64,000 bases of DNA. Origin: an uncultured virus (IMG/VR IMGVR_UViG_2724679563_000003) (Duplodnaviria; Heunggongvirae; Uroviricota; Caudoviricetes). The DNA lies in the IMG/VR virus record IMGVR_UViG_2724679563_000003, positions 1 through 64,000 of that record. The stretch is one strand, 5' to 3'. The notes under the pieces were generated by a model. It was not told the origin of the DNA, did no database searches, and worked only from the letters and a program-made list of their open reading frames with translations. Positions 9,069 through 48,969 of the stretch are shown one piece after another. Position 1 is the first letter of the stretch; every line of letters begins with the position of its first letter. A program made the translations under genes and the position numbers.

Positions 9069-9143
9069 ATGGGTTTAGTGTAATGTGTAGCACGACAGTC
9101 TCCAAAACTGTTAGTGAGGGTTCAAATCCCTCAGTCCATGCCA
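9069..9143 (+). tRNA. trnW: tRNA-Trp (CCA)
   Basis: Cloverleaf: acceptor ATGGGTT/AGTCCAT, anticodon arm ACAGT-CTCCAAA-ACTGT, T arm GAGGG-TTCAAAT-CCCTC, encoded 3' CCA. Confidence 0.93.
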
Positions 9144-36153: not shown

Positions 36154-36524
36154 AAAATGTGTGCCTGAGTATGCAGTAATGTATATTTAAAAATGCTTAA
36201 ATTGACGGGGAAGTCCTTAGAGTTTTATATACCAAGTTATTATGGAAACATATATAATGGCTAAGTATAACGGCTTAGGTATGGTAAAAAATATAAAAAT
36301 TGGGCAACCAAACGCAGCCAAGCATCTAAGTATAATTTAATTATATATGATGAAGGTTCAACGATTATAATAGCAATAGGAACTGTTTTTATAAATAAGC
36401 CTATAAGGTATAATCTGAACATCTATGGAAAACATAGAGAAGATATTTTAACGAATATCTCGCCATAACAAAATAATTTGTTGTGGTCAGTAGCTTATAT
36501 TTTATAAGTGAAAGTAACAGCTTG
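36154..36524 (+). ncRNA. Group I intron 2 (371 nt, no ORF) in the tape measure gene
   Basis: P1 caggt/gcctg with U.G, P7 gattat 36363/ataatc 36410, terminal G 36524. Splicing gives LAG|THQRENFLVLM. Confidence 0.85.
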
Positions 36525-39500
36525 ACTCACCAAAGGGAAAATTTCTTAGTGCTGATGGATAATTTAGAACAAGTGAATAAACTTCAAAAAGAGGTAAATA
36601 AGGCAGCAGGAAATTCAAAAAGAAAATATAATGAAGATTATGCTGAATCTGTTGAAGCGAAAGTTAAGAACCTTAAACATGCTTGGGAAGAGCTATATCA
36701 ATCTTTAATTTCTAGCGATGCCTTAAAAATAATTCTTCAAACAGGAACAAAATTGGTAGGAGTATTAGATGCCTTAATTCATTCAAGCAGAGGAACAAAA
36801 GTAAGTTTACTAGTGTTATTACCAACAATTATATTAATAGGTAAACATTTTAAGTATATGATAGATATCATAAAATCAGGTAAAGATTTAAAATTTATAG
36901 ATGTTCTTTGGGGAAGTTTGTTTGGTAAAATGACTAGTGGAGTAGGGGTTGTTGAATCTCTTAAAGGTGCTTTTAAATCTCTTTTTGGAACTATAAGTTC
37001 TTTTAATGCTTTAATAACATCTCCAACAGGATTAATGTTTGCAGGTATTGCAGTTACTATAGGTGTAGCAACTGCTGCAATAGTTAAACATATAAAACAT
37101 CAGAAAGATTTAAGAGAAGAAAATAAAAAATTAAAGAAAAGCTATGAAGATTTGACTAAAGCAATGAGAGAGAATAACAAGGAAGAAATAAAAAACGCAA
37201 TAGAAGACCCTCAAAAAGCTCAAGATGAATTGCAAGCTTTAATGAAAAGAAGAGATGAATTAAAAAAGGCAATGAAAAATACTCCTCATATGACAGGTAT
37301 GAGTGGAGAAAATAATGCTGATTTAAAAGAAACCGAAATTCGAATTCAAGAATTACAAAAATCAATTAAAAGTAGTAATTTAACACTAAATGAAACAACT
37401 GGTAAAATAATCGACATAGCAAAAGCAAAAAATCAAATTGTCAATTCAGATGTAGCAGATGCAATAAAAGAAACTGCTGAATATGAATTAAAAGAGAAAG
37501 ATTATATCGCTGGGCTATATGATGAATATAATAGATTAAGTTCAATTAAAAATAAAAGTAAAACCGAAGAAAAGGAATTAAGTAACGTTTCTGAAAAGTT
37601 AAATGATAATGTAAAAGGTTTAATTTTGACAAAAGATAAAGAAGGTAATGTAATAATTGAAAATACAGGTTTGTTAAATGATGAAGTAAAAATGCTTAAA
37701 ACCGAAGGAATGACTGTTGAAGAACTTACTAAGGCAAAATTAGAAGCAGCAAAAGAACACGCTCAAATACAAAGAGGAATGACTAAGATATCATATGAAG
37801 AAGCTAGGAAAAGAATACTTTTTCTACATGAGGAAATGAGAAAGAGAGAGCCATTAGCAGATGCTATTGATAAAGTTCTTCCATCTGCAAAGATTACAGG
37901 AATGAATCCTGTTCGAAGACAAATAGATATGTTGAAAGATGAAAGTGTGGAGTTAGAAGAACAAATGGCGAGACTAGATAGCATTTTTAAACAACCGAGT
38001 TCAATGAATATTAGTGAAACTCCAGACTTTAATCCTGTAGATCCAGAAAAGGAAAAGAAAAGTACAGATGCGTTAAAAGAAAATACGGGTGAAATTGACA
38101 AAAATCGTGAAGCTGTTAATAAAGCTAAAGAAGCTGTAAAACAATATGAGTTAGCTTTGAAATCATTAGAGTTACAAATGACTAAAAATGATATAAGTTT
38201 GGGAAGATTGTATAAGAATAGTGATGCATATAGAAAAAAATTAGACGAGAAGGCAAATTTAATTAAACAAGAAATAGCCTTAAACAAACAACAAATAGCT
38301 ACTAATAAAGAATTAGCTGGTTCACTTGGGGCTGTTAGTAGTGCATATACTAGTGGTATGAGTAGTAGTATTGGAGAACAAGTTGTAAAAAATGCACAAC
38401 AGTATCTAGGAAGACCTTATAAGTGGGGTGGTAGTACACCTAGTGAAAACTTTGACTGTTCTGGATTGGTTCAATATGTATATAAGCAAGTAGGAGTTTC
38501 TTTGAACAGAACGACATATGACCAAGTAAAACAAGGTACTCCTGTTTCAAAAAATCAATTGCAAGTAGGAGATGCTGTATTTTTTGGTAGTCCATCAGCA
38601 CCTCATCATGTAGGCATTTATATGGGGAATGGACAATATATACATGCTCCAAAAACAGGTGATGTTATAAAAGTTTCTAGTTTAAATAGTAGAAGTGATT
38701 ATGCAACTGCTAGAAGATATGTAAGTGGAAGTGGTGGGTACAATAGAGTCTCAGCATCTAATTATACTGGTGAGTATTCCAATTATATTAATGAAGCTGC
38801 TGCAAAATATGGCGTTTCTGCTGCTTTAATTGCAGCTGTAATAAAAGCCGAGTCAAATTTTAATCCTAATGATGTAAGTGGTTCAGGAGCAATCGGTCTA
38901 ATGCAACTTATGCCTGCAACAGCTAGAGAATTAGGTGTTGGAAACCCATATGATCCAAAACAAAATATTATGGGTGGCACAAGGGAATTAGCTAATTTAA
39001 TAAAAAAATATAATGGTAATTTAGATTTAGTATTAGCTGGATATAATGCAGGGGTAGGAGCTGTAGAAAAATTTGGAGGAGTTCCTCCTTATAAGGAGAC
39101 AAAAGACTATATTCCTAAAGTTAAAAAGTACATGAAAGGGTTTGGTGGATCGGAATCATCAATCCATTCAGTAATAGACGAGCAAATGGATTTAATTGGC
39201 AAATCAATGGATATGGAAAAGAAAAATGCTGAACTAATGGAAAATTTAAATAAAATAAATATTGAAAAATTAGAATCACGTTTAGGAGAATTTGATGACA
39301 AAGTTAAATCTATTGATAGGACAATTACTCAATTAAGAACAGATGTCGATTTGCAAAATAAAAATGATATTAATTATATTAACTATTTATCTAAGATAGA
39401 TGATTATACTGTTAAAAAGTTAGATACTTTAAGAAAAGAAAGAGAATTTATTGAAAAAGAAATGAAATCAGGCATTTATGATGAAACTACTATTCATATG

Positions 39501-40997
39501 TTAAGCGAAAAATATTCAGACATAGGGACAGAAATGCTTAATGTAACTAAAACTATCAAAGATGTGAGTTTAGAATTAGTCACTGCTAAATGGGAAGCCA
39601 TCCAGCAGATTTATAAAGAAAATATAGAAATGATTTCAAATGAACTAGATAGACTTAGTTTACATGAAGAAAAAAATATCAAGCAAATAATGATATTAAA
39701 GAAGCAACTAGTAGAACAAGACGAAGAAAATATTAGAAGAATGACTGAGTTAATTCGAGAAACTAATGATATAGCATATAAATATGGCAAAGATTTCTTG
39801 TTAGATAAAGTTAGAGAGTATACTGCTGAATTAGATAAAGCTAATACTGAACTAGAAAAGCATAAAAAAGAGCTAGAAGATATCAAAGACAAAATGTCTG
39901 AAATGAAGTCCACTATAGAAGATAAACTAAGAGAAGTCTTAACTAAAACTGCTGAATTAGCGAAAGAACAATTAGATAAAGTTTTAAAACATTTCGAGGA
40001 ATCTATAGATGCTGAGTTAAAGAAAATAGATGATGCAGAAAAACGAAATAGTTATAATGAACAGAAAAGCGAGCAGTTAAAAACTATAGCGGAATTACAA
40101 GAAAAGATAGCCAAATTATCAACAGATGATAGCGAAGAAGGCATAGCTAGAAGGCTAGAGTACGAAAAACAATTACAAGAGGAAATGAAGAAAAAGACTG
40201 ATCTACAGATGAAGCACAATAATGAATTAAAGAAAGAAGCCCTAACAAAACAGAAAGAAGAAAAGAAAAAAGAAATAGAAAAGAAAAAACGTGATATCGA
40301 CACAAGATTAGATAATGTTTATCTAAATTTAGATGCAAGAAAAGCACTAACTGAAGGCTATATTGAATGGATTGATGGTAAGAGAATTGGAATCCAAAAT
40401 GCTCTATTACAATTTGAGGATTTATTTGGAAAAGGGTTAACTTCACTAGGAGACAAAATAAAAAAGGAATTATTAGAACAATTAAAAGCAGCACAAGACT
40501 TAGTAAATGGAATAGATAAAAAAGACCCTGATAAAATACTTGAAGAAAATAAAACTAAAAATGTATATGGGACAGGGGCGGATTTAGCCAATGCTCGAAA
40601 GATATTAGGTTCTTTAGGATATAACTATATAGATACAAGCCTTGTAGACAAAAACAAATTACATTTTGGGAAAGATGATATAGTTGTAGGAGATACTGGT
40701 GCTATTAATGGTGTTGACAGACAAGATTTAAATGGTGCTATAAGACTAGGTGGGAAAAATAGATATGATACGGCAGGAATCATACAATTATATTCAGATA
40801 TTCAAAGTGGAAGAATTAAGCCTGTTGGCGGAATTGTATATGGTACAGGACAAGATTTAAAAAATGCTATAGCATGGCTTAGTCCTTTAGGATATGAATT
40901 TGTAGATACATCAAAAATAAATTCTAAAGATATTAATTTTAATCCAAATGATATTATTGTAGGTGGCAAAGGTGCAAAAGGTGGAGTAAACTTTGAT
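36525..40997 (+). CDS. Tape measure protein, exon 3 (NlpC/P60, lytic transglycosylase SLT and CWB2-like repeats)
   Basis: FDCSGLVQY...HVGIY, and IKAESNFNP...GAIGLMQLMP.TA...AGYNAG. Ends at the TTGAT target. Confidence 0.88.
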
Positions 40998-41480
40998 TGA
41001 CTTGCCAACGCATACTCGTGACTTCAGCCATGAGTTAGTTGGCAAACAGTTAGCATATAGAGAAATCTGTATGTAGTGGTATTAGTCACAATACCCAACA
41101 CTACTTGAATTGCTGGGAAGCCCTAAAGCTAATTAAACTACAACATAAGAATGAAATAAGTCTAAGTGTGAAAGTTACGAAAGTAGAAAAAATTAATTGG
41201 ATAGTGCAAGGTTAAATCCTAAACACTAAAACAATGGGCAATCAGCAGGTAAGCCTCGAACAGAGGAAACTTCAACGACTATTCCTCTTGAGGGAAGTAG
41301 GTACAAGCGTACCGAAGTGGGTAGACCCTAACATGTAATGATGAGGGATAAGATATAGTCTGTGCGTCATACGAAAGTATGAGAAGTTCATAAGAGAACT
41401 GCATAGGTAGTAGCGAACCTATGTGAACGATACCTCAAACATGATTAAAGAACCTACGGTTCTTATATATATTATTTAAA

Positions 41481-41681
41481 TTATTTAGGTATGAATTCAA
41501 TAACATTTTCAATGTTACAATTAAGATACACACAAATATTTTCAAGTGTTTCCATGGAAATATATTCATTTTTAGACATTTTTGCTAATGTAGCTGTGCT
41601 GAAACCAACTGCTTCACGAAGTTGAGTTTTGGACATATCTCTTTCTAATAATAATCTAAATAATGGTTTATAACTAATCAT
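41481..41681 (-). CDS. XRE/Cro-like HTH protein inside the IS605-type IStron
   Basis: MISYKPL..LL.ER.MSKT.L...VGFS.ATLAK...E.I....LE.IC..L.C.IE.VIE. RBS aaggag on the minus strand. Confidence 0.85.
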   Translation of the reverse strand: MISYKPLFRLLLERDMSKTQLREAVGFSTATLAKMSKNEYISMETLENICVYLNCNIENVIEFIPK

Positions 41682-41763
41682 TTAAATCACTCCTTTTATT
41701 TAGATTGTATCATATATATTTTATAAGTCAATATATAATATTTATAAACCTAAACAAAATATG

Positions 41764-41792
41764 TTGACATTAAATTTAGAATATGATATATT
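41764..41792 (+). promoter_or_regulatory. Sigma-A promoter for tnpB, with a divergent promoter for the HTH gene at about 41704-41731
   Basis: TTGACA-17-TATATT with extended TG. Minus strand TTGACT-16-TACAAT. Confidence 0.6.
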
Positions 41793-41837
41793 ATATTTAG
41801 AAAAGCAAATATAAGTCTTAAAATGAGGTGTTAATAA

Positions 41838-43031
41838 ATGACTTCTACAAATATTGAAAAGAATACAATAGCAAAAGGATTTAAATATAGAATTTATCCC
41901 AATAAAACTCAAATAAATCAAATAGAATTGAGTTTTAATGCTAAAAGATATGTTTGGAATTATTTTTTAAATATTAATAAACATAGATTAAAACATCATA
42001 AATCAGTATTAAATTTTGCTAAAATGTCAAGATTATTAACACTACTTAAAAAGAAAAATATATGGCTTAAACAATGTGAAAAATCTGTATTGCAAAATAC
42101 TCTAAAAAATCAATATGAAACATTTTTAAAATTCTTTAAGAAAGAATGTGGTTTTCCTAAGTTTAAATCATATAAAAGTAATTATCAATCTATTAAAATC
42201 AATTATACAAATAATAATATAGAAGTATTAGAAAAAGAAATAAAATACACATCTACAGGTAAATATAAGAAGCAAAATTGTAAAATTAAATTACCTAAAT
42301 TAAAACAAGTAAAAATAGCTTATTCAAGACAATATCAAGGTAGAATAGTTAGTTCTACTTTATCAAGAGATACAGATGGTAAATATTATATTAGTTTGTG
42401 TTGTGTAGATGTACCACAAGAAAATAAAGAGAAAACAGGTTTAGTAGTTGGAATAGATTTAGGAATAAAAGAGTTTGCAACTACAAGTGATAATAAAGTT
42501 ATTTCTAATCCTAAATATTATAGAAGATATGAAGATAAATTAATAAAAGCTCAAAGAAAACTTAGTAAACGTAAAAAAGGTAGCAATAATAGAAATAAAC
42601 AAAGATTAAAAGTAAACAAATATCATAAAAAAATTTATAATTGTAGAATAGATTTTCTTCAAAAATTAACTACAGATTTTATTAATAACTATGATATTAT
42701 TTGCATGGAAGATTTGAATACAAGTGGAATATTACAAAATCATAAGTTAGCTAAAAGTATAGCAGATGCAAGTTTCTTTGAGTTTAATAGAGAATTAGAA
42801 TATAAAACAAAATGGTACGGTAAAATATATCAACAAATAGATAGATTTTATCCATCTAGTCAATTATGTAGCGATTGTGGCAATCAATCACAACAAACTA
42901 AAGACTTAGGAGTAAGGGCATATATCTGTGAGAAATGTGGTTTAGTAATAGATAGAGATTATAATGCTAGTATTAATATTTTAAATGAAGGTTTAAGAAT
43001 AATTAATAATAAAAAAGTAGTAAGTATGTAA
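41838..43031 (+). CDS. tnpB: TnpB RNA-guided endonuclease (IS605 type)
   Basis: KYRIYP N-terminus. RuvC GIDLG / MEDLN / DRDYNA intact. Zn finger CSDC..CEKC. Confidence 0.93.
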   Translation: MTSTNIEKNTIAKGFKYRIYPNKTQINQIELSFNAKRYVWNYFLNINKHRLKHHKSVLNFAKMSRLLTLLKKKNIWLKQCEKSVLQNTLKNQYETFLKFFKKECGFPKFKSYKSNYQSIKINYTNNNIEVLEKEIKYTSTGKYKKQNCKIKLPKLKQVKIAYSRQYQGRIVSSTLSRDTDGKYYISLCCVDVPQENKEKTGLVVGIDLGIKEFATTSDNKVISNPKYYRRYEDKLIKAQRKLSKRKKGSNNRNKQRLKVNKYHKKIYNCRIDFLQKLTTDFINNYDIICMEDLNTSGILQNHKLAKSIADASFFEFNRELEYKTKWYGKIYQQIDRFYPSSQLCSDCGNQSQQTKDLGVRAYICEKCGLVIDRDYNASINILNEGLRIINNKKVVSM

Positions 43032-43183
43032 GTGTGTAAATAAGATATAAGAATAAAAATAATATATATAAGAACCGTAGGAACTATGGGGATAGCTTGG
43101 TGATACTTAACACATTAGTGTTATTGACCAAGAACTCCGTGACTTTAGTCATGGGAGGTTCAGGTAGACGGTGTTACTAGATT
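43032..43183 (+). ncRNA. Predicted omegaRNA (reRNA) scaffold plus guide of the IS605-type TnpB
   Basis: Structured region between tnpB and the right end. The guide would be the flanking exon, gtagacggtgttactag. The 5' boundary is uncertain. Confidence 0.6.
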
Positions 43184-43841
43184 AGGTGGAAATGATAGAA
43201 ATGATACATATAATCAAATAAGAAATAAAGCATTAATCGATTTAAATGCTATGAATAAAGCTAATTATGTTCCTAAGTCTAAATATGGAAAAGTATATGG
43301 AACTGGTTATGATTTGAAAGCAGCTAAGAAATATCTAACTAAATTAGGTTATCAATTTGTAGATACTAATTCTGTTAGGGATGTTCAATTAACAGCGAAT
43401 GACATTGTTGTTGGTGGCACTATGGATGGTAAGGAGCAAATTTATAATAGTCAAGCGAGATGGTTATTTGGTAAAGATAGATATCAGACTGAGAGTGAGA
43501 TAGCTAATTATGCAAATACCATGAGCGATATTAAAGGTTATTATGATAAAGGTGGAGTTGCAGATTTTACAGGAAAAGCTATGCTTCATGGGAATCCTAA
43601 TGCAGTAGAGACTATATTTAACGCAGAACAAGGTAAGAAATTATATAATTTTGTTAATACCTTACCTATAAATAATTTTGGGTATGGAATGAATAGAAAT
43701 CTACAACCCGCAATGGCAACTAGTAACAATAATAATATTGAAATAAATTTTCATATTGATAAAATGTATGGAACAGAAAATGAAGCTCAAGGTTTTGCTA
43801 CTAAAATAATAAATACTCTTAGAAATAGAGGAAAGTATTAA
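43164..43841 (+). CDS. Tape measure protein, exon 4
   Basis: In frame with track ORF 43251. CWB2-like repeat and a Y.KGG.ADFTG.AMLHG...E TMP C-terminal motif. Confidence 0.85.
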   Translation, partial: VDGVTRLGGNDRNDTYNQIRNKALIDLNAMNKANYVPKSKYGKVYGTGYDLKAAKKYLTKLGYQFVDTNSVRDVQLTANDIVVGGTMDGKEQIYNSQARWLFGKDRYQTESEIANYANTMSDIKGYYDKGGVADFTGKAMLHGNPNAVETIFNAEQGKKLYNFVNTLPINNFGYGMNRNLQPAMATSNNNNIEINFHIDKMYGTENEAQGFATKIINTLRNRGKY

Positions 43842-43873
43842 GGATACAATTTTAATTGTATCCTTTTCTTTTT
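43841..43873 (+). terminator. Intrinsic terminator
   Basis: aggatacaatt/aattgtatcct stem plus T-tract. Confidence 0.65.
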
Positions 43874-43891
43874 AAAGAGAGGTGATGGTTT

Positions 43892-46120
43892 TTGATAAAG
43901 AGCAGTTTATATTTCAATTATGCAGGTAGAGATAGTTTAGAATTTAATATTATAAATGGTTCTGTAGATAATGCAGAATTAAAAGAAAATTTTTTAGCTA
44001 ATAAGAAAATAAAAGAAATAAATACTATAGAGGCTGATAAGCCTTATTTTCAAGGAATAGAAAGAAATCCATTACAACTTAAATTACAATTTTGTTTCAC
44101 AGAAAAATGGAATAAAGAATTAATTAGAGAAGTGGCTAGATGGTTACATCAAGATAATTATCAGCCATTATATTTTTCTGAAGACCCTGAAAAGATTTAT
44201 TATGCTATGCCTGTTGATGATGTTGAAATGACACATTTTGGGCTAGAACAAGGATATTTAGACATAACTATGAGATGTAATACTTATCATGCCTATAGTA
44301 GAGAATATTTGAGTGAAACGTATGATTTAAGTGAAAACAATGAGGATGGAACAGAAATAATAATACCAAATTATGGGGATATAGATATAAAACCAGATAT
44401 TTGGATTAAAAAAATAAGTGATGGTAGCTTAGAAATAACAAATAGAAGTAATAGTGGAGAAGTTACAAGTTTTTGTAATGGCTCTAGTGGTAAAGGTATA
44501 TTAAAATTTACAGGAACAGTATTTGATAGCGAAATCGTAACGATAGGTGATAAGATATTTGAATTCGATACAGGTGATGGAATTGTAAATGAAAATGTTA
44601 AACAATGGACGCAAGGATTTAAATATATAGATGGAACAATAGTTAATAAAAGTGGGATTTTATACCAATGTATTAAAACAAATGAAGATGAAGAATGGAA
44701 TAAAAGTCATTGGAAAAAGCTAGATAAAAGTAATATAAAAGTGGATGTAAGTGCAGATGCTAACCCTGCACAAGCGAAATTAGTTTTTAATAACACACCC
44801 ATTGAAGATAGTGATAATATTTCCATTGGTAATAACACCTATGAATTCGATTTCGATGATGTATACGAAGCAAAAAATGGACATATTCCAATATCTTTAA
44901 AAAACTATACCACACAAGCTAATGGAAGATTAATAGCTAGAAGTAATTTGGATTTTGCAGGAAGTAAAATTAAAGTAGGAGATAGGGAATATGAAATAAC
45001 TGCATCTTCAAATGAAGGAGTTGCAATTACGAAGAATACTGGGCTAAAAGGTTGGACAAATTGGAGATTAGATGCTTATTTTGAATCCGATTCTGATTTT
45101 AAAGATGCAACCTTATTAATAAATGAAAAAAGAGACAACACACTTGATGGAGTAAGGATACCTTTAGTAAGTGATTTCGTTAATAATAGAATAGATAAAG
45201 AAAAGCAGATTATTGAGCTGTTCAAATTAACAAAATTTTTAGGAATCCCTGCTGAAAGATATGCTGATACAGGAAAGTTCCAACCTGTTTCACAAGGAAT
45301 CAAAGGACAAGATATAGGTGATGAATTAAGCATCTATAAAAGAACTGGAAGAAGTTTTAAAATAGATATGATAAATTCTACATCCAATAAGTTTTATATT
45401 AATAAAATGTTTCAAAGAAATGGTGTTACAGATAAAAATATGGAAGCAAAAATTGGGGATATTATATTAATTACTAAATGGCAAGAGAATAGAAAGAATG
45501 ATTCTTTTGTTGAATATGAAGGTAAAGATTATATACAATCTGACTTTGAACTATTAAGAATAAAAAATGTAGGTGAAACTAAAAACAATAGTTTAATTTT
45601 AACTCACGAAAGTGGAACTTATTGGTATGAATTAGAAACTCCTAGTAAAATATTTAAAACCAACCCTCTCTATTCTTATGGTGAAGGGAAAAGAGTTGTA
45701 GGAAGTGGATATGACTTAGCAAATGCAAAGATTGTTTTAAATGGATTAGGTTTTTCTTTTGTGGATTCAAAGGGTTTATCAGAAGAAAATTTAAGAAAAA
45801 TTGTTAGAAATGGAGATATTATTTTAGGGGAGAAAGGTGCTAAAGGCGGAATTCCATTTGATATTGATGGTGCAATTAGATTAGGTGGAAGTGATAGATA
45901 TGAAACTGCAAAATTGGTAAGAGATTATTATTGGGAAATCCATGATAAATATTATGCTAAAGGATATGATTATTATTATAATGTTATTTTATTTACAAAA
46001 CAAGGAGAAAAATTATTGATTCAGGAGGATATTCCACTAACAAAACCTTATCAAATTAGGATGGGAAGTAGCTTAGATGAAACATGTGAAAACATAGTAA
46101 AAGCTATAAATGAAGAAGGT
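43892..46120 (+). CDS. Distal tail (Dit-like) protein with inserted domains, exon 1 (joined about 1019 aa)
   Basis: F.YAGRDS.EF.I, WL.QD.Y.PL.F.EDP.K.YY and N.GD...KP Dit-like motifs. Follows the TMP gene. Confidence 0.75.
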
Positions 46121-46602
46121 AACTAACTGTTAAACAAAACTTATAAAAAGTTATAAATAGGTGTTGACTTTTATAACTTTAGAGAGATGAATAACAGAGC
46201 CTCGTATGTAGAGAAATCTGCATAGGACACGACCTTAAAACCAGTAATCCCTAAAGCCTTTACACTACAATAAGATATGAAATAAGGTCTTATGAATGTG
46301 GGAAACTATCAACAACGTAAAGGATGGCATATGGTGAAACCCTAAGTGCTAATACAATGGGTGTTTGGTCGCCAAGTTCCGAACAGGAAAAGGTCAAACG
46401 ACTAGAGAGCAATCTCGTACACTGCAAGTCAATAATGGTAGTGGAAATGGGTCGCCCTTAACTCTTGAATAAAGCAAGAAAAGGTGAAGAAATAGTCTAC
46501 GCACGTTGGGAAACCAAGTGGTCATTATCGTGAGAAAAATGACATCTATAAAGTAGCGTTTATAGGTAAATATCATAAAACTTATATAAATAAGAGTAGA
46601 AT

Positions 46603-46764
46603 TTAATCTACTCCATATTCTTTAAGAACTAATTCAATGGCTTTATCTAATAATTTAGACATAGGAATTGAAGTTTCTTTTGATAAAACTTTAAGTTTTT
46701 CAAATAATTTAGCATTAACTGCATTGCTTATTGCAGTACGATTTTTAAGACCTCTATTATTCAT
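46603..46764 (-). CDS. Ribbon-helix-helix protein (53 aa, not in the track) inside the IS607-type IStron
   Basis: MNNRGLKNRTAISNAVNAKLFEKLKVLSKETSIPMSKLLDKAIELVLKEYGVD. RBS gaggtg on the minus strand. Confidence 0.8.
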   Translation of the reverse strand: MNNRGLKNRTAISNAVNAKLFEKLKVLSKETSIPMSKLLDKAIELVLKEYGVD

Positions 46765-46800
46765 AAAAATCACCTCAAAATTATTATAATATATTTAAAA

Positions 46801-46844
46801 ACTACTTGCAACTACTTGCAACTACTTGTAGTTTGTGATATAAT
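46801..46844 (+). promoter_or_regulatory. Three 10-bp direct repeats (ACTACTTGYA) overlapping the tnpB promoter
   Basis: Repeats at 46801, 46811 and 46821. TTGCAA(46816)-17-TATAAT(46839) with extended TG. Confidence 0.65.
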
Positions 46845-46873
46845 AAAAATATAGAGAGTGAGATGAAAAACAT

Positions 46874-47986
46874 ATGGAAAAAGGTTTTAAAATTCAAATA
46901 TTTCCTAACAAAGAACAACAAATATTAATGTTTAAAAGTTTTGGATGTGCAAGATTCGCATATAATTGGGCATTAGCAAAGGAAAAAGAAAACTATAAAA
47001 ATGGTGGTAAATTTATTCCAGATAAACAATTAAGAAAAGAATTTACTCAATTAAAAAAGCAAAATGAATATAAGTGGCTAAATGAGATAAGTTGTAATGT
47101 AACTAAACAAGCCATAAAAGATTGTTGCAAAGCCTATAAAAACTTTTTTAAAGGTATAAATAAATATCCAAAATTTAAATCTAAGAAAAAATCTAAATTT
47201 AGTTTTTATAATGATACTTTTAAAATTAAATTTACTGATAAGAAAGTTATGCTTGAAACAATAGGTTGGATGAATATAGCTGAAAGAAATAAAATACCAA
47301 CAAATTGCAAATATTTAAATCCGAGAATATCATTTGATGGAATTAGATTTTGGTTATCTATAGGTTGTGTTGTAGAAGATGTGGCTGATATGTTACCTAA
47401 AACAGAACCTATAGGAATAGATATGGGAATAAAAACATTAATGGTATGTTCTAATAAGATGGAATTTAAAAGAGTTAATACTAAAAAAGAAAGAAAAAAA
47501 CTTAAAAGACTTCAAAAGAAAGCTAGTAGATTATATGAAAAGATGTTGAAAACCAAAATTTCTAAGTCAAGTAATCTACTAAAGCTTGAAAAAATGATTT
47601 TAAAACAACACCAAAAAATATCAAATATAAGAATAAATAATATACATCAAGCTACAAGCAAATTAATTAAATTAAATCCTAGTCATATAGTTGTTGAGGA
47701 TTTAAATATAAAGGGAATGATGAAAAATAAATATTTATCAGAAAAAATAGTAGATTGTTCATTCCATGAAATACGTAGACAATTAGAGTATAAATGTAAA
47801 TGGAATAATATAAAGTTAATTGTAGCTAATAAATGGTATGCTTCATCAAAAATTTGTAGCAATTGTGGTAATAAAAAAGACAAACTTTCATTAAGTGAAA
47901 GAATTTATACTTGCGAGTGTTGTGGAAAAATTATAGATAGAGATTTTAATGCTAGTCTAAATCTTAGAAATTTAGCTTATAACTAA
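46874..47986 (+). CDS. tnpB: TnpB RNA-guided endonuclease (IS607-associated)
   Basis: FGCARFAYNW. RuvC GIDMG / VEDLN / DRDFNA intact. CSNC..CECC. Confidence 0.93.
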   Translation: MEKGFKIQIFPNKEQQILMFKSFGCARFAYNWALAKEKENYKNGGKFIPDKQLRKEFTQLKKQNEYKWLNEISCNVTKQAIKDCCKAYKNFFKGINKYPKFKSKKKSKFSFYNDTFKIKFTDKKVMLETIGWMNIAERNKIPTNCKYLNPRISFDGIRFWLSIGCVVEDVADMLPKTEPIGIDMGIKTLMVCSNKMEFKRVNTKKERKKLKRLQKKASRLYEKMLKTKISKSSNLLKLEKMILKQHQKISNIRINNIHQATSKLIKLNPSHIVVEDLNIKGMMKNKYLSEKIVDCSFHEIRRQLEYKCKWNNIKLIVANKWYASSKICSNCGNKKDKLSLSERIYTCECCGKIIDRDFNASLNLRNLAYN

Positions 47987-48138
47987 ACTACAAGCTAAAT
48001 ATGTAGTGATACGTTAGTCACGAATTAAAGCCTTCGGAGAACTATACAAACTAAAGTAGTAGTATTTTATATTATGAAATAGAGTTCATTGAATTAGGAA
48101 ATAGAATTTATAACTTTTTATAAGTTTTATGTAACGGT

Positions 48139-48969
48139 AGAGACTGGGTCGAATATTCCAAAGGCACATATGAACATGATGATGTAAGAGCTGAATATGA
48201 TAAAAGTTCAAAGATTATAAATATAAAAGCAAAAGAAAGAGGTAGTAAAGGAAATAAAATATCTTCAGTAGTAAATGATTGGGAAAACACTCAAAAATTA
48301 TTAAGACAAAATTATAAAATAAACCAATTTGAATTTCCCAATTTGGTGAAAGGTAAGGATGCTATTTATAGTGAGCTAGATGACACAAATGGAAAATCAT
48401 TAATAGCATATATAACAGATGTGTTAAAGACAAATGAAGATAAAATGAATATTAGCTTTTCTAATAATACTATAAATATAATTTCTAAAAAATATGGAAG
48501 CATTAACAATATAATTCCTATATTGTCTAACTGTTATTCTTGTAATTTCTATGATATTAAAGACAACCCTGCTGTAACTTTAGAAGGAGGAAAAGACCCA
48601 AGTATAAATACTATTTTACAAGCTTTATATTCTACTATAGACAATGTATTTTGTAAGATGGATTTAGAGAATCAAACAATTACAGTGACTCATAAAGAAA
48701 TAGGTAAAAAAACTAATATTAATATAAGTACAACTGCTATAAATGCTTATTGGGATAATGGCAAGAAATTATATGGTGGTAGAGATGGACTAGTTAATGA
48801 TGAAGAAATATACATAGAAGGTGAAAGTGGACATATTGAAAGTAATAAAAACAAAGGAATTGTAGATGTATATAATGGTAATGATTTAGTTTTAAAATAT
48901 GGTGAAAATAGACTATTAATTAAGGGAAATTGTTTTATAAGATTTAAAACTAAATATAAATTCTTATAG
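48139..48969 (+). CDS. Distal tail protein, exon 2
   Basis: Open frame from 48139 continuous with track ORF 48343. Ends L.L.YGEN.L.I.G....F, a Dit-like C-terminus. Confidence 0.75.
   Translation, partial: RDWVEYSKGTYEHDDVRAEYDKSSKIINIKAKERGSKGNKISSVVNDWENTQKLLRQNYKINQFEFPNLVKGKDAIYSELDDTNGKSLIAYITDVLKTNEDKMNISFSNNTINIISKKYGSINNIIPILSNCYSCNFYDIKDNPAVTLEGGKDPSINTILQALYSTIDNVFCKMDLENQTITVTHKEIGKKTNINISTTAINAYWDNGKKLYGGRDGLVNDEEIYIEGESGHIESNKNKGIVDVYNGNDLVLKYGENRLLIKGNCFIRFKTKYKFL

Follow-up and report, generated by a model that had tools for sequence, protein, structure and literature searches.

Why should two intron-bearing insertion elements in the tail genes of one provirus each carry, divergent from tnpB, a small gene for a DNA-binding protein? 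The question is raised by the 64,000-nucleotide (nt) stretch analyzed here (positions 1 to 64,000 of IMG/VR record IMGVR_UViG_2724679563_000003, an uncultured virus of the Caudoviricetes; hereafter the window), which belongs to a 159-kb provirus and has a GC content of 22-31% in 2-kb intervals. An earlier note on this DNA had described two IStrons, i.e., group I introns fused to an insertion sequence (IS), and both were found to be located in the tail module. The host element is a large Clostridium-type (pro)phage, and both interrupted genes, which encode the tape-measure protein and a distal tail (Dit-like) protein, are essential and late. In each element, an intron core is followed by a minus-strand regulator gene, divergent promoters, tnpB and the right end; all parts of this layout, as proposed in that note, were found in both elements, the promoters being consensus matches only and the core of IStron 2 scoring below the Rfam gathering score. 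It is likely that both are non-autonomous IStrons with a portable cassette, composed of a small regulator, a bidirectional promoter-operator and the nuclease gene, that represses tnpB. Anatomy, mobility and conservation are established by the data below, and from them we infer repression by the helix-turn-helix (HTH) regulator of IStron 1 and the ribbon-helix-helix (RHH) regulator of IStron 2, together with its timing. The parts under discussion are:

40998-43163, plus strand: IStron 1, IS200/IS605-type (group A), 2166 nt, starting after TTGAT and ending in TCAG.
41049-41383, plus strand: group I intron catalytic core of IStron 1 (RF00028, 63.5 bits at a gathering score of 50, E 7.4e-16).
41481-41681, minus strand: HTH regulator, 66 aa, XRE/Cro-C1 type (PF13443 HTH_26, E 2.3e-17).
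41838-43031, plus strand: tnpB1, 397 aa (PF01385, PF07282, PF12323; RuvC residues D207, E291 and DRD 372-374; CxxC...CxxC).
46120-48137, plus strand: IStron 2, IS607-type (group B), 2018 nt, with GG at each junction and a CGG end.
46198-46520, plus strand: probable group I intron core of IStron 2 (profile match and identity to phage D-1873).
46603-46764, minus strand: RHH regulator, 53 aa, Arc-like (PF12651 RHH_3, E 3.3e-17; phrog_3180 "Arc-like repressor," E 3.7e-16).
46874-47986, plus strand: tnpB2, 370 aa (RuvC residues D183, E275 and DRD 355-357; three Pfam TnpB domains).

The insertion points proposed earlier, behind TTGAT and at GG, are confirmed: both sets of boundaries are fixed because empty sites exist in related phages. 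The interrupted genes are divided as follows:

36483-40997, plus strand: tape-measure exon 1, with NlpC/P60 and SLT domains (PF00877, PF01464) and a match to phrog_4211, tape measure protein (E 2.6e-44).
43164-43841, plus strand: tape-measure exon 2, in-frame VDGVTRLGG, with a weak match to phrog_4197, tape measure.
43892-46119, plus strand: distal tail protein (Dit-like) exon 1 (phrog_202 and phrog_33, Dit; PF20195).
48138-48969, plus strand: Dit exon 2, an in-frame continuation that is contiguous with exon 1 in four related phages (G001-G004).

The TTGAT target motif occupies positions 40993-40997 and forms the end of tape-measure exon 1. A long open reading frame (ORF; 36483-41000) terminates at the TGA beginning right behind it, and the frame picks up at 43164. 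The junctions read TTGAT/TGACTT... on the left and ...GGTTCAG/GTAGAC on the right, with matching ends at seven sites in the family. Excision in silico fuses ...GGVNFD to VDGVTRLGG... with the reading frame kept, and in a related phage (G004, locus L172) the tape-measure site is empty and reads TTTGAT/ATTGATGG. An identical copy of IStron 1 is present at the same site in five viral loci. For group A IStrons, TTGAT (or ATTAT/TTTAT) is accepted as insertion motif and TCAG as 3' terminus; IStron 1 shows the core, the TTGAT and TCAG ends, tnpB with subterminal hairpins, in-frame restoration and an empty site. The Dit gene is split at 46119/46120 and resumes at 48138. Here the junctions are GAAGG/TAAC...AACGG/TAGAG and the empty allele is GAAGG/TAGAG, without target duplication. 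Among five related records, the empty allele GAAGG/TAGAGAT is found in four (G001-G004) and the element in one (G005), and such presence and absence among near-identical phages fits recent homing or transposition. GG insertion, a CGG terminus and tnpB with a right-end omega-RNA scaffold place IStron 2 in group B.

The intron cores were matched to RF00028 in narrow-stretch searches only, as whole-window and 8-kb default searches came back blank owing to their speed filters. Phage sequences align to the core of IStron 1 with 75-78% identity over about 300-320 nt, and the group I intron annotated in D-1873 does so with 72% over 327 nt. For IStron 2, the narrow search gave 24.9 bits (E 2.7e-4), below the gathering score; a profile built without IStron 2 matched positions 46198-46502 (nhmmer, E 8.6e-21), and identity to the annotated D-1873 intron is 74% over 189 nt. 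The two cores of the window are 70% identical over 123 nt and the two TnpB proteins 29% identical. To call the two IStrons unrelated therefore goes too far; by these comparisons, the elements are separate IS families carrying homologous introns.

The RuvC D/E/D residues are intact in both proteins, as had been stated: the motifs GIDLG/MEDLN/IDRD of TnpB1 and GIDMG/VEDLN/IDRD of TnpB2 align with solved TnpB-family chains, and the zinc-finger cysteines are kept in both alignments (TnpB1 versus ISDra2 TnpB 8bf8, E 1.3e-73; TnpB2 versus 8iaz, E 5.5e-65). They are the sole TnpB genes of the 159-kb record, in which a six-frame search gave no match to Y1 transposase (PF01797) or serine recombinase (PF00239), in agreement with the reported absence of a transposase. 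TnpA is required for autonomy, not for membership among the IStrons. Both elements are best explained as non-autonomous IStrons, in which a TnpB-only IS is joined to the group I intron. Many described group A IStrons are likewise without a full TnpA (Tourasse et al., 2014, PMC4227781; Zedaveinyte et al.).

The HTH protein is predicted with high confidence to adopt the fold of small XRE regulators. Its AlphaFold2 (AF2) model (pLDDT 96.4) has VanUg (3tyr) as best fold match (TM 0.95, 51% identity), a PDB profile search also matches 3tyr (E 4.4e-18), and the protein comprises a five-helix XRE domain. CylR2 (TM 0.77), the SaPI Stl N-domain and the restriction-modification controllers C.BclI, C.Esp1396I and C.AhdI are further fold matches. 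Judged from the models, the window HTH thus resembles C proteins, CylR2 and VanU-type XRE repressors, which are XRE-fold regulators of about 66-80 aa. Regulators of this group act as dimers on paired palindromes and set the time at which the nuclease gene of a mobile element is expressed. Unlike restriction-modification C systems, there is no methylase partner here, the nuclease is RNA-guided and the element is an intron-transposon. A transposon-encoded MerR-type repressor of a gene of the Cas12k/TnpB lineage has, like the HTH, a non-RHH fold, but it is a winged helix rather than an XRE protein and belongs to another transposon class without an intron.

The search for recurrence suggested in the earlier note was carried out on viral contigs and showed that the HTH travels with tnpB. 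It returned 79 loci, 23 of which have a divergent tnpB 150-165 bp upstream. These 23 loci represent eight distinct insertion sites, and seven of the sites are IStrons after TTGAT. Six loci belong to the IStron family of the window, five at the same site and one (L020) behind another TTGAT of the tape-measure gene, with a core 92%, a TnpB 87% and an HTH 100% identical. Another six (L033-L038) are IStrons after TTGAT that end in GGTTCAG, at five further sites, and their HTH is 79-87% identical. The HTH remains 78-87% identical where the neighboring TnpBs, including those of L033-L038, share only 44-46% identity with TnpB1. The remaining 11 loci (L025 type) are intron-less IS605 elements, in which an intact 138-aa Y1 TnpA (PF01797, E 6.6e-33) converges on the HTH and tnpB is divergent. 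All 11 are one orthologous insertion, and the coexistence of tnpA, HTH and tnpB hence describes a single lineage.

The L025-type element bears directly on the idea that the regulator stands in place of TnpA, which was abandoned: this element holds tnpA, HTH and tnpB together, and published Arc genes also coexist with tnpA (Moon et al. 2026, 10.64898/2026.09.24.754181). The HTH as a tnpA remnant was likewise rejected, since the L025 TnpA used as query matched none of the IStron loci with an HTH (L018-L023 and L033-L038). It is extremely improbable that the small ORFs lack a function, be it as decaying remnants or as products of chance. They are short, annotation tracks can miss such ORFs, and the exact RHH protein is unnamed in the protein collection; both proteins nevertheless match Pfam families of their own at E values of about 1e-17, without any Y1 or serine-recombinase signal, the exact HTH protein occurs on 32 contigs and the exact RHH protein on 16, and pairwise dN/dS of the HTH lies between 0.05 and 0.16 wherever dS could be estimated. 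Judging from these ratios, the HTH gene is under purifying selection. Selection and family evidence already contradict the remnant explanation, and the HTH proved to be neither a tnpA remnant nor a one-off passenger, two outcomes by which the earlier note would have been refuted. On the sequence evidence, the HTH is an integral, selected part of the mobile unit.

The HTH-tnpB1 intergenic region (41682-41837, 156 bp) has one architecture across the eight family members compared. It holds the following sites:

41704-41731, minus strand: promoter-like site of the HTH gene, TTGACT-16-TACAAT with TG, 10/12, conserved in relatives.
41739-41756, no strand: candidate operator O1, TATTTA-N6-TAAACA, flanked by the two -35 boxes, position conserved in 8/8 members.
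41764-41792, plus strand: promoter-like site of tnpB1, TTGACA-17-TATATT with upstream TG, 11/12, the best of 7.4 kb scanned.
41794-41811, no strand: candidate operator O2, TATTTA-N6-CAAATA, one base past the tnpB -10 box and 55 bp from O1, in 7/8 members.

The palindrome TRTTTA-N6-TAAAYA is present in two copies 54-55 bp apart in seven of the eight members and in one copy in L035. Over about 51 kb, 15 of 21 one-mismatch matches fall inside the intergenic regions of about 160 bp, and the sole exact match in the window is located in the intergenic region of the element itself. O1 and O2, which were kept as candidates on position and conservation alone, are probably the sites through which the HTH represses the tnpB promoter and controls its own gene.

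In IStron 2, the corresponding region (46765-46873, 109 bp) is differently built. The ATG at 46764 was taken as the start of the RHH gene because homologues begin MN(N)RGLKNR, and the gene lies inside the IStron borders, adjoining tnpB2 across divergent promoter-like sites with repeats over the promoter boxes:

46800-46828, no strand: candidate Arc operator, 2.9 tandem copies of AACTACTTGC, a 10-bp array (TRF score 58).
46811-46783, minus strand: promoter-like site of the RHH gene, 10/12.
46816-46844, plus strand: promoter-like site of tnpB2, 10/12, with TG.

The AACTACTTGC array contains two TTGCAA hexamers, which are the -35 boxes of both divergent promoter-like sites, and runs into the palindrome AACTAC-TT-GTAGTT. 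Three matches to the repeat were counted where 0.09 were expected, all of them in the element's own intergenic region, and three were reached in none of 100 shuffles. Operator-like sites overlap the promoter-like sites of tnpB in both elements.

Among 44 viral RHH homologue loci, 17 have a divergent tnpB. When 16 of the other 27 were sampled, a divergent homing-endonuclease gene was found in 13 (four GIY-YIG, three LAGLIDADG, six HNH), and the remaining three adjoin terminase or other HTH proteins. Depending on the phage, the nuclease gene beside this cassette thus encodes TnpB or a homing endonuclease of the GIY-YIG, HNH or LAGLIDADG type. About ten of 22 RHH loci, tnpB- or endonuclease-linked, show a TTGCAACTACnnGTAGTT core followed by TGnTATAAT or a close variant, a count read by eye and not scored; at this position, other loci carry another palindrome or direct repeat. 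From these arrangements, the RHH cassette appears to supply selfish nucleases with a portable unit of repressor, operator and promoter. The endonuclease-linked homologues (L123, L124, L128-L131, L133, L141, L149, L150, L153, L158 and L159) are 52-83% identical to the window protein and have structural or replication genes of the phage on either side; in L123, L124, L129, L131 and L141 the TTGCAACTACnnGTAGTT core is located in the promoter, as it is beside tnpB, and in the rest another palindrome or a direct repeat takes its place.

The switch from one nuclease to another bears on a further explanation, in which the small protein would act as an addiction or antitoxin-like module, neutralizing or titrating a toxic TnpB or forming an unstable partner whose loss would set the nuclease free. 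We regard this as very unlikely. RHH and XRE proteins are common type II antitoxins, one HTH homologue (L039) adjoins a MazF-family toxin, and the idea has been raised for archaeal RHH/MazE-tnpB pairs (Altae-Tran et al. 2023); yet regulator and tnpB are divergent and not co-transcribed, both proteins (53 and 66 aa) consist of the DNA-binding domain only without a neutralizing tail, and one RHH cassette serving unrelated endonuclease folds fits promoter control better than protein contact.

Several observations weigh against a repressor cassette for tnpB. The closest phage relative of IStron 1 (CP067352) is without the HTH ORF, and five of five bacterial-genome IStrons with TnpBs 73-86% identical to that of L034 run from core to tnpB without an HTH; by this comparison, the HTH is dispensable for an IStron. 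Its motif is not enriched across the window (one exact match versus 0.48 expected, 12 one-mismatch matches versus 11.4), was derived from the same sequences in which it is counted, and is conserved among family members that share descent, which makes these counts interdependent. As to the promoter-like sites, they match a consensus in DNA of 25-30% GC, and their number in the region, 50, is that of the shuffles (mean 49.6). O1 abuts the tnpB -35 box, a position compatible with activation. The window RHH gave no BLASTP alignment with the RHH of the D-1873 IStron. Finally, the published Arc data concern IS605-family elements in Escherichia coli, not IS607-type IStrons or phages (10.64898/2026.09.24.754181). 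Orthology of the window RHH and the D-1873 RHH is not claimed for want of that alignment; both match Arc-like PHROGs.

The position of O1 could instead indicate dual-function controllers in the manner of C proteins or of lambda CI at PRM, which activate at low and shut off at high concentration; such regulators would set a delay and a ceiling instead of simply repressing. O1, directly upstream of the tnpB -35 box, is activator-like and O2, over the start region, is repressor-like, and the fold search with the HTH model also retrieved C.BclI, C.Esp1396I and C.AhdI. The tnpB1 promoter is, however, near consensus (11/12 plus TG) and should need no activator, the top fold match is VanUg and not a C protein, and the published Arc data show repression only. 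This explanation is accordingly judged unlikely.

The distribution of the HTH outside the element raises the question whether the regulators are passengers, i.e., phage or host regulators with targets elsewhere that ride in the cargo loop without control of tnpB. No tnpB was found near 56 of the 79 viral HTH homologues (mostly 54% identical), and the neighbors of such homologues include MazF toxin, AimR and ORFs of unknown function. Among 23 loci from the HTH search of bacterial genome contigs, 20 in which the HTH scored had no tnpB nearby and three gave no HTH match. Of 16 genome loci fetched by two TnpB queries, 15 were without an HTH match, and the sixteenth (L189) has a weak one (39% identity) about 1.3 kb upstream of tnpB, not in the adjacent divergent layout. 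As the genome collection holds one genome per species, absence there is weak evidence. In the data examined, the HTH and tnpB combination was found only in viral contigs. In addition, contigs with the autonomous IS605 plus HTH element also hold a 54%-identical HTH paralogue elsewhere, and the HTH is missing from close IStron relatives. Against these points, divergent order, spacing and promoter-flanking palindromes are kept at eight sites while TnpB identity falls to 44-46%, and the exact HTH-motif match and all three RHH-repeat matches of the window fall in the elements' own intergenic regions. A role as mere passengers is thus distinctly unlikely. A phage HTH paralogue may be the source of the cassette. 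Such paralogues were seen at L046, L047, L049, L057 and L087, on the contigs of L032, L026, L027, L029 and L092, and two paralogues (L040 and L046) are divergent to ORFs of unknown function (phrog_3754 and phrog_2316).

The modular repressor-promoter cassette is real, and that it represses tnpB in these two elements is what we infer from its sequence. In the proposed mechanism, the regulator, putatively a dimer, would occupy repeats that overlap the internal tnpB promoter: the HTH would bind the palindromes O1 and O2, and the RHH protein the 10-bp array across both -35 boxes. Binding would shut down transcription of tnpB and the omega-RNA and of the regulator's own gene. Because the ribozyme core is absent from internal-promoter transcripts, these would yield only TnpB and guide RNA. 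On entry into a repressor-free cell, a burst of TnpB and guide would be expected, with low levels afterwards. TnpB and guide would then act as a homing or retention nuclease on element-less alleles. Repression would hold TnpB low in the lysogen and late in infection; the low level would spare the host cell, and in the tail-gene pre-mRNA the region of the 3' splice site would stay accessible to splicing, since TnpB supplied in trans was reported to reduce IStron splicing (Zedaveinyte et al., 10.1101/2023.11.20.567912). The link to the balance between splicing and guide production would follow from published data.

Part of this scheme has been published before. An IStron-encoded Arc-like RHH gene was reported by Zedaveinyte et al. 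(bioRxiv 10.1101/2023.11.20.567912; Science 2024), who linked the Arc-like ORF to TnpB, homing endonucleases and other mobile elements (10.1101/2023.11.20.567912). In IS605-family elements, binding of Arc to the bidirectional promoter and repression of the tnpB promoter were demonstrated by ChIP-seq and reporters (Moon et al. 2026, 10.64898/2026.09.24.754181). As in the window, these systems have a small RHH gene inside the element, divergent from tnpB, and as in IStron 2, the bidirectional promoter has repeats over the -35 box and an association with homing endonucleases exists. Unlike the published Arc genes, the window copy lies in an IS607-type, TnpA-less IStron within a phage Dit gene. 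That TnpB-only IStrons imply intron homing is stated in a 2026 review, and the homing intron with TnpB as nuclease, put forward in the earlier note, is thus an idea already in print. The same note had held the regulator-bearing form to be uncharacterized; for the RHH form this does not hold (Zedaveinyte et al., Moon et al.), while for the XRE-HTH form it agrees with the literature searched.

IStrons and an XRE analogue are not mentioned in the accessible text of Moon et al. (10.64898/2026.09.24.754181), and the literature search found no XRE-HTH regulator of tnpB for IS605 elements or IStrons; supplementary figures on bioRxiv may list such ORFs. A rare "additional HTH domain protein" is reported as cargo in a serine-recombinase branch (Altae-Tran et al. 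2023). The RHH form is therefore already known, and the XRE-HTH form in IS605-type IStrons is apparently undescribed. Among the closest described systems, the CdISt1/CdiIStrons of Clostridioides difficile share with IStron 1 the TTGAT target, the TCAG end, an IA2-type 5' core, a 3' tnpB with omega-RNA and the lack of a full-length TnpA. For these, the accessible text mentions tnpA fragments and no XRE-HTH, whereas IStron 1 has the HTH cassette and no detectable tnpA fragment. CbISt4 of the C. botulinum phages c-st and D-1873 (Tourasse et al. 2014, PMC4227781) is an IS607-type IStron with the part order of IStron 2, namely an annotated group I intron, a 49-aa minus-strand ORF and tnpB. The 49-aa ORF matches Arc-like PHROGs, but the TnpB is of a different lineage and the insertion site differs. 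In the original description CbISt4 is listed as "delta-ORF A + ORF B," and the accessible text does not name the regulator (PMC4227781).

Against this background, the field question is how one RNA balances splicing against guide formation, and element-encoded transcriptional control was shown recently, only for the Arc (RHH) fold. To this the window contributes a protein of another, unrelated fold (XRE-HTH) that occupies the same slot with promoters arranged alike, and each of the two regulators moves together with its promoter as a portable repressor cassette. A general rule is thereby suggested, by which selfish nucleases in phage genomes are kept under a repressor of their own. A further proposal, which we find doubtful and advance tentatively, is that the XRE-HTH cassette is a non-homologous functional analogue of Arc, independently acquired by phage-borne IS605-type IStrons for a phage-specific job. 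The burst would then follow fresh infection or co-infection of a cell, at a time when rival phages offer tail-gene alleles without the element as homing targets, and later repression would keep TnpB off the 3' splice site, such that the tape-measure and Dit mRNAs splice during late expression. If so, the use of a different repressor fold by each of the two IStron families in this tail operon would be convergent evidence of a cost of unregulated TnpB, and this cost would fall on an intron in an essential gene. Natural promoter-operator-repressor sets of this type would be usable for the control of TnpB editors. If the regulators were irrelevant to tnpB, two ordinary TnpA-less IStrons in tail genes would remain.

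The RNA architecture around the cassettes comprises the following further features:

41017-41032, plus strand: left subterminal hairpin motif CGTGACTTCAGCCATG, with a direct-repeat partner at 43138-43153 at the right end, 88% identical.
41453-41485, plus strand: 5' arm of the cargo-closing inverted repeat, partner 43049-43081, 33 nt, 91% complementary.
43032-43163, plus strand: right end of IStron 1, omega-RNA scaffold (from its position 3' of tnpB) and 3' splice site, 132 nt.
48031-48100, plus strand: RAGATH-18 motif (RF03064, 59 bits at a gathering score of 44.9).

Similar hairpins at both ends are a hallmark of IS200/IS605 elements, and IStron 1 carries the direct repeat CGTGACTTYAGYCATG at 41017 and 43138. 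Its inverted repeat encloses a cargo loop of 1.56 kb with the HTH gene and tnpB. Comparable repeats of 23-38 nt and 84-93% complementarity flank the cargo in nine of nine family IStrons examined (IStron 1, L020, L033-L035, L183-L185 and L005), whether the HTH is present or not; the sequence varies by locus with complementarity preserved, and no such repeat was found in the intron-less IS605 element (L025). A cargo-closing helix that favors splicing and the omega-RNA fold may be mutually exclusive, because the 3' arm of the repeat overlaps the first hairpin after tnpB (CCGTAGGAACTATGG). The last 100 nt of IStron 1 are 86-92% identical in L033-L038 despite TnpBs of only about 45% identity, and no Rfam family was matched in the right end (43032-43163). 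In IStron 2, the RAGATH-18 motif is taken to be the omega-RNA scaffold of tnpB2, as judged from sequence and position; it is likewise annotated behind a homologous tnpB in Staphylococcus phage 110.

For the right end of IStron 2, two pairings were noted. One joins 46126-46158, at the extreme left end, to 48106-48138 (33 nt, 91%), and the other joins 46574-46590, just past the core, to 48115-48131 (17 nt, 94%). They are alternatives because the 3' arm is common to both. Terminator-like hairpins at the 3' ends of the regulator genes (41448-41464 and 46594-46613) are readable on both strands, and their plus-strand reading lies within the intron, in the path of tail-operon transcription.

When the presumed guide-matching sequence of IStron 2 (48138-48157) was compared with the element-less Dit alleles (L165-L168), mismatches were seen: G003 and G004 have T instead of C at position 7, and G001 and G002 differ from the window at positions 1 and 7. 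The Dit alleles of G001-G004 might be poor targets for the TnpB of IStron 2, because the mismatch positions adjoin the target-adjacent motif. Within the Dit gene, positions 45845-45920 form an uninterrupted paralogue of the module that IStron 1 cuts in the tape-measure gene (CCATTTGAT/ATTGATGGTGCAATTAGATTAGGTGG). In this paralogue TTGAT is present, and by manual comparison 14 of the next 20 bases are the same as in the flank of IStron 1.

At one other locus (L014), additional tnpB fragments and an opposite-strand Y1 tnpA surround the gene for a TnpB1 relative of 79% identity, which suggests nested or tandem IS605 insertions. The provirus also carries a tRNA gene at 9069-9140 (Rfam RF00005, 63 bits).

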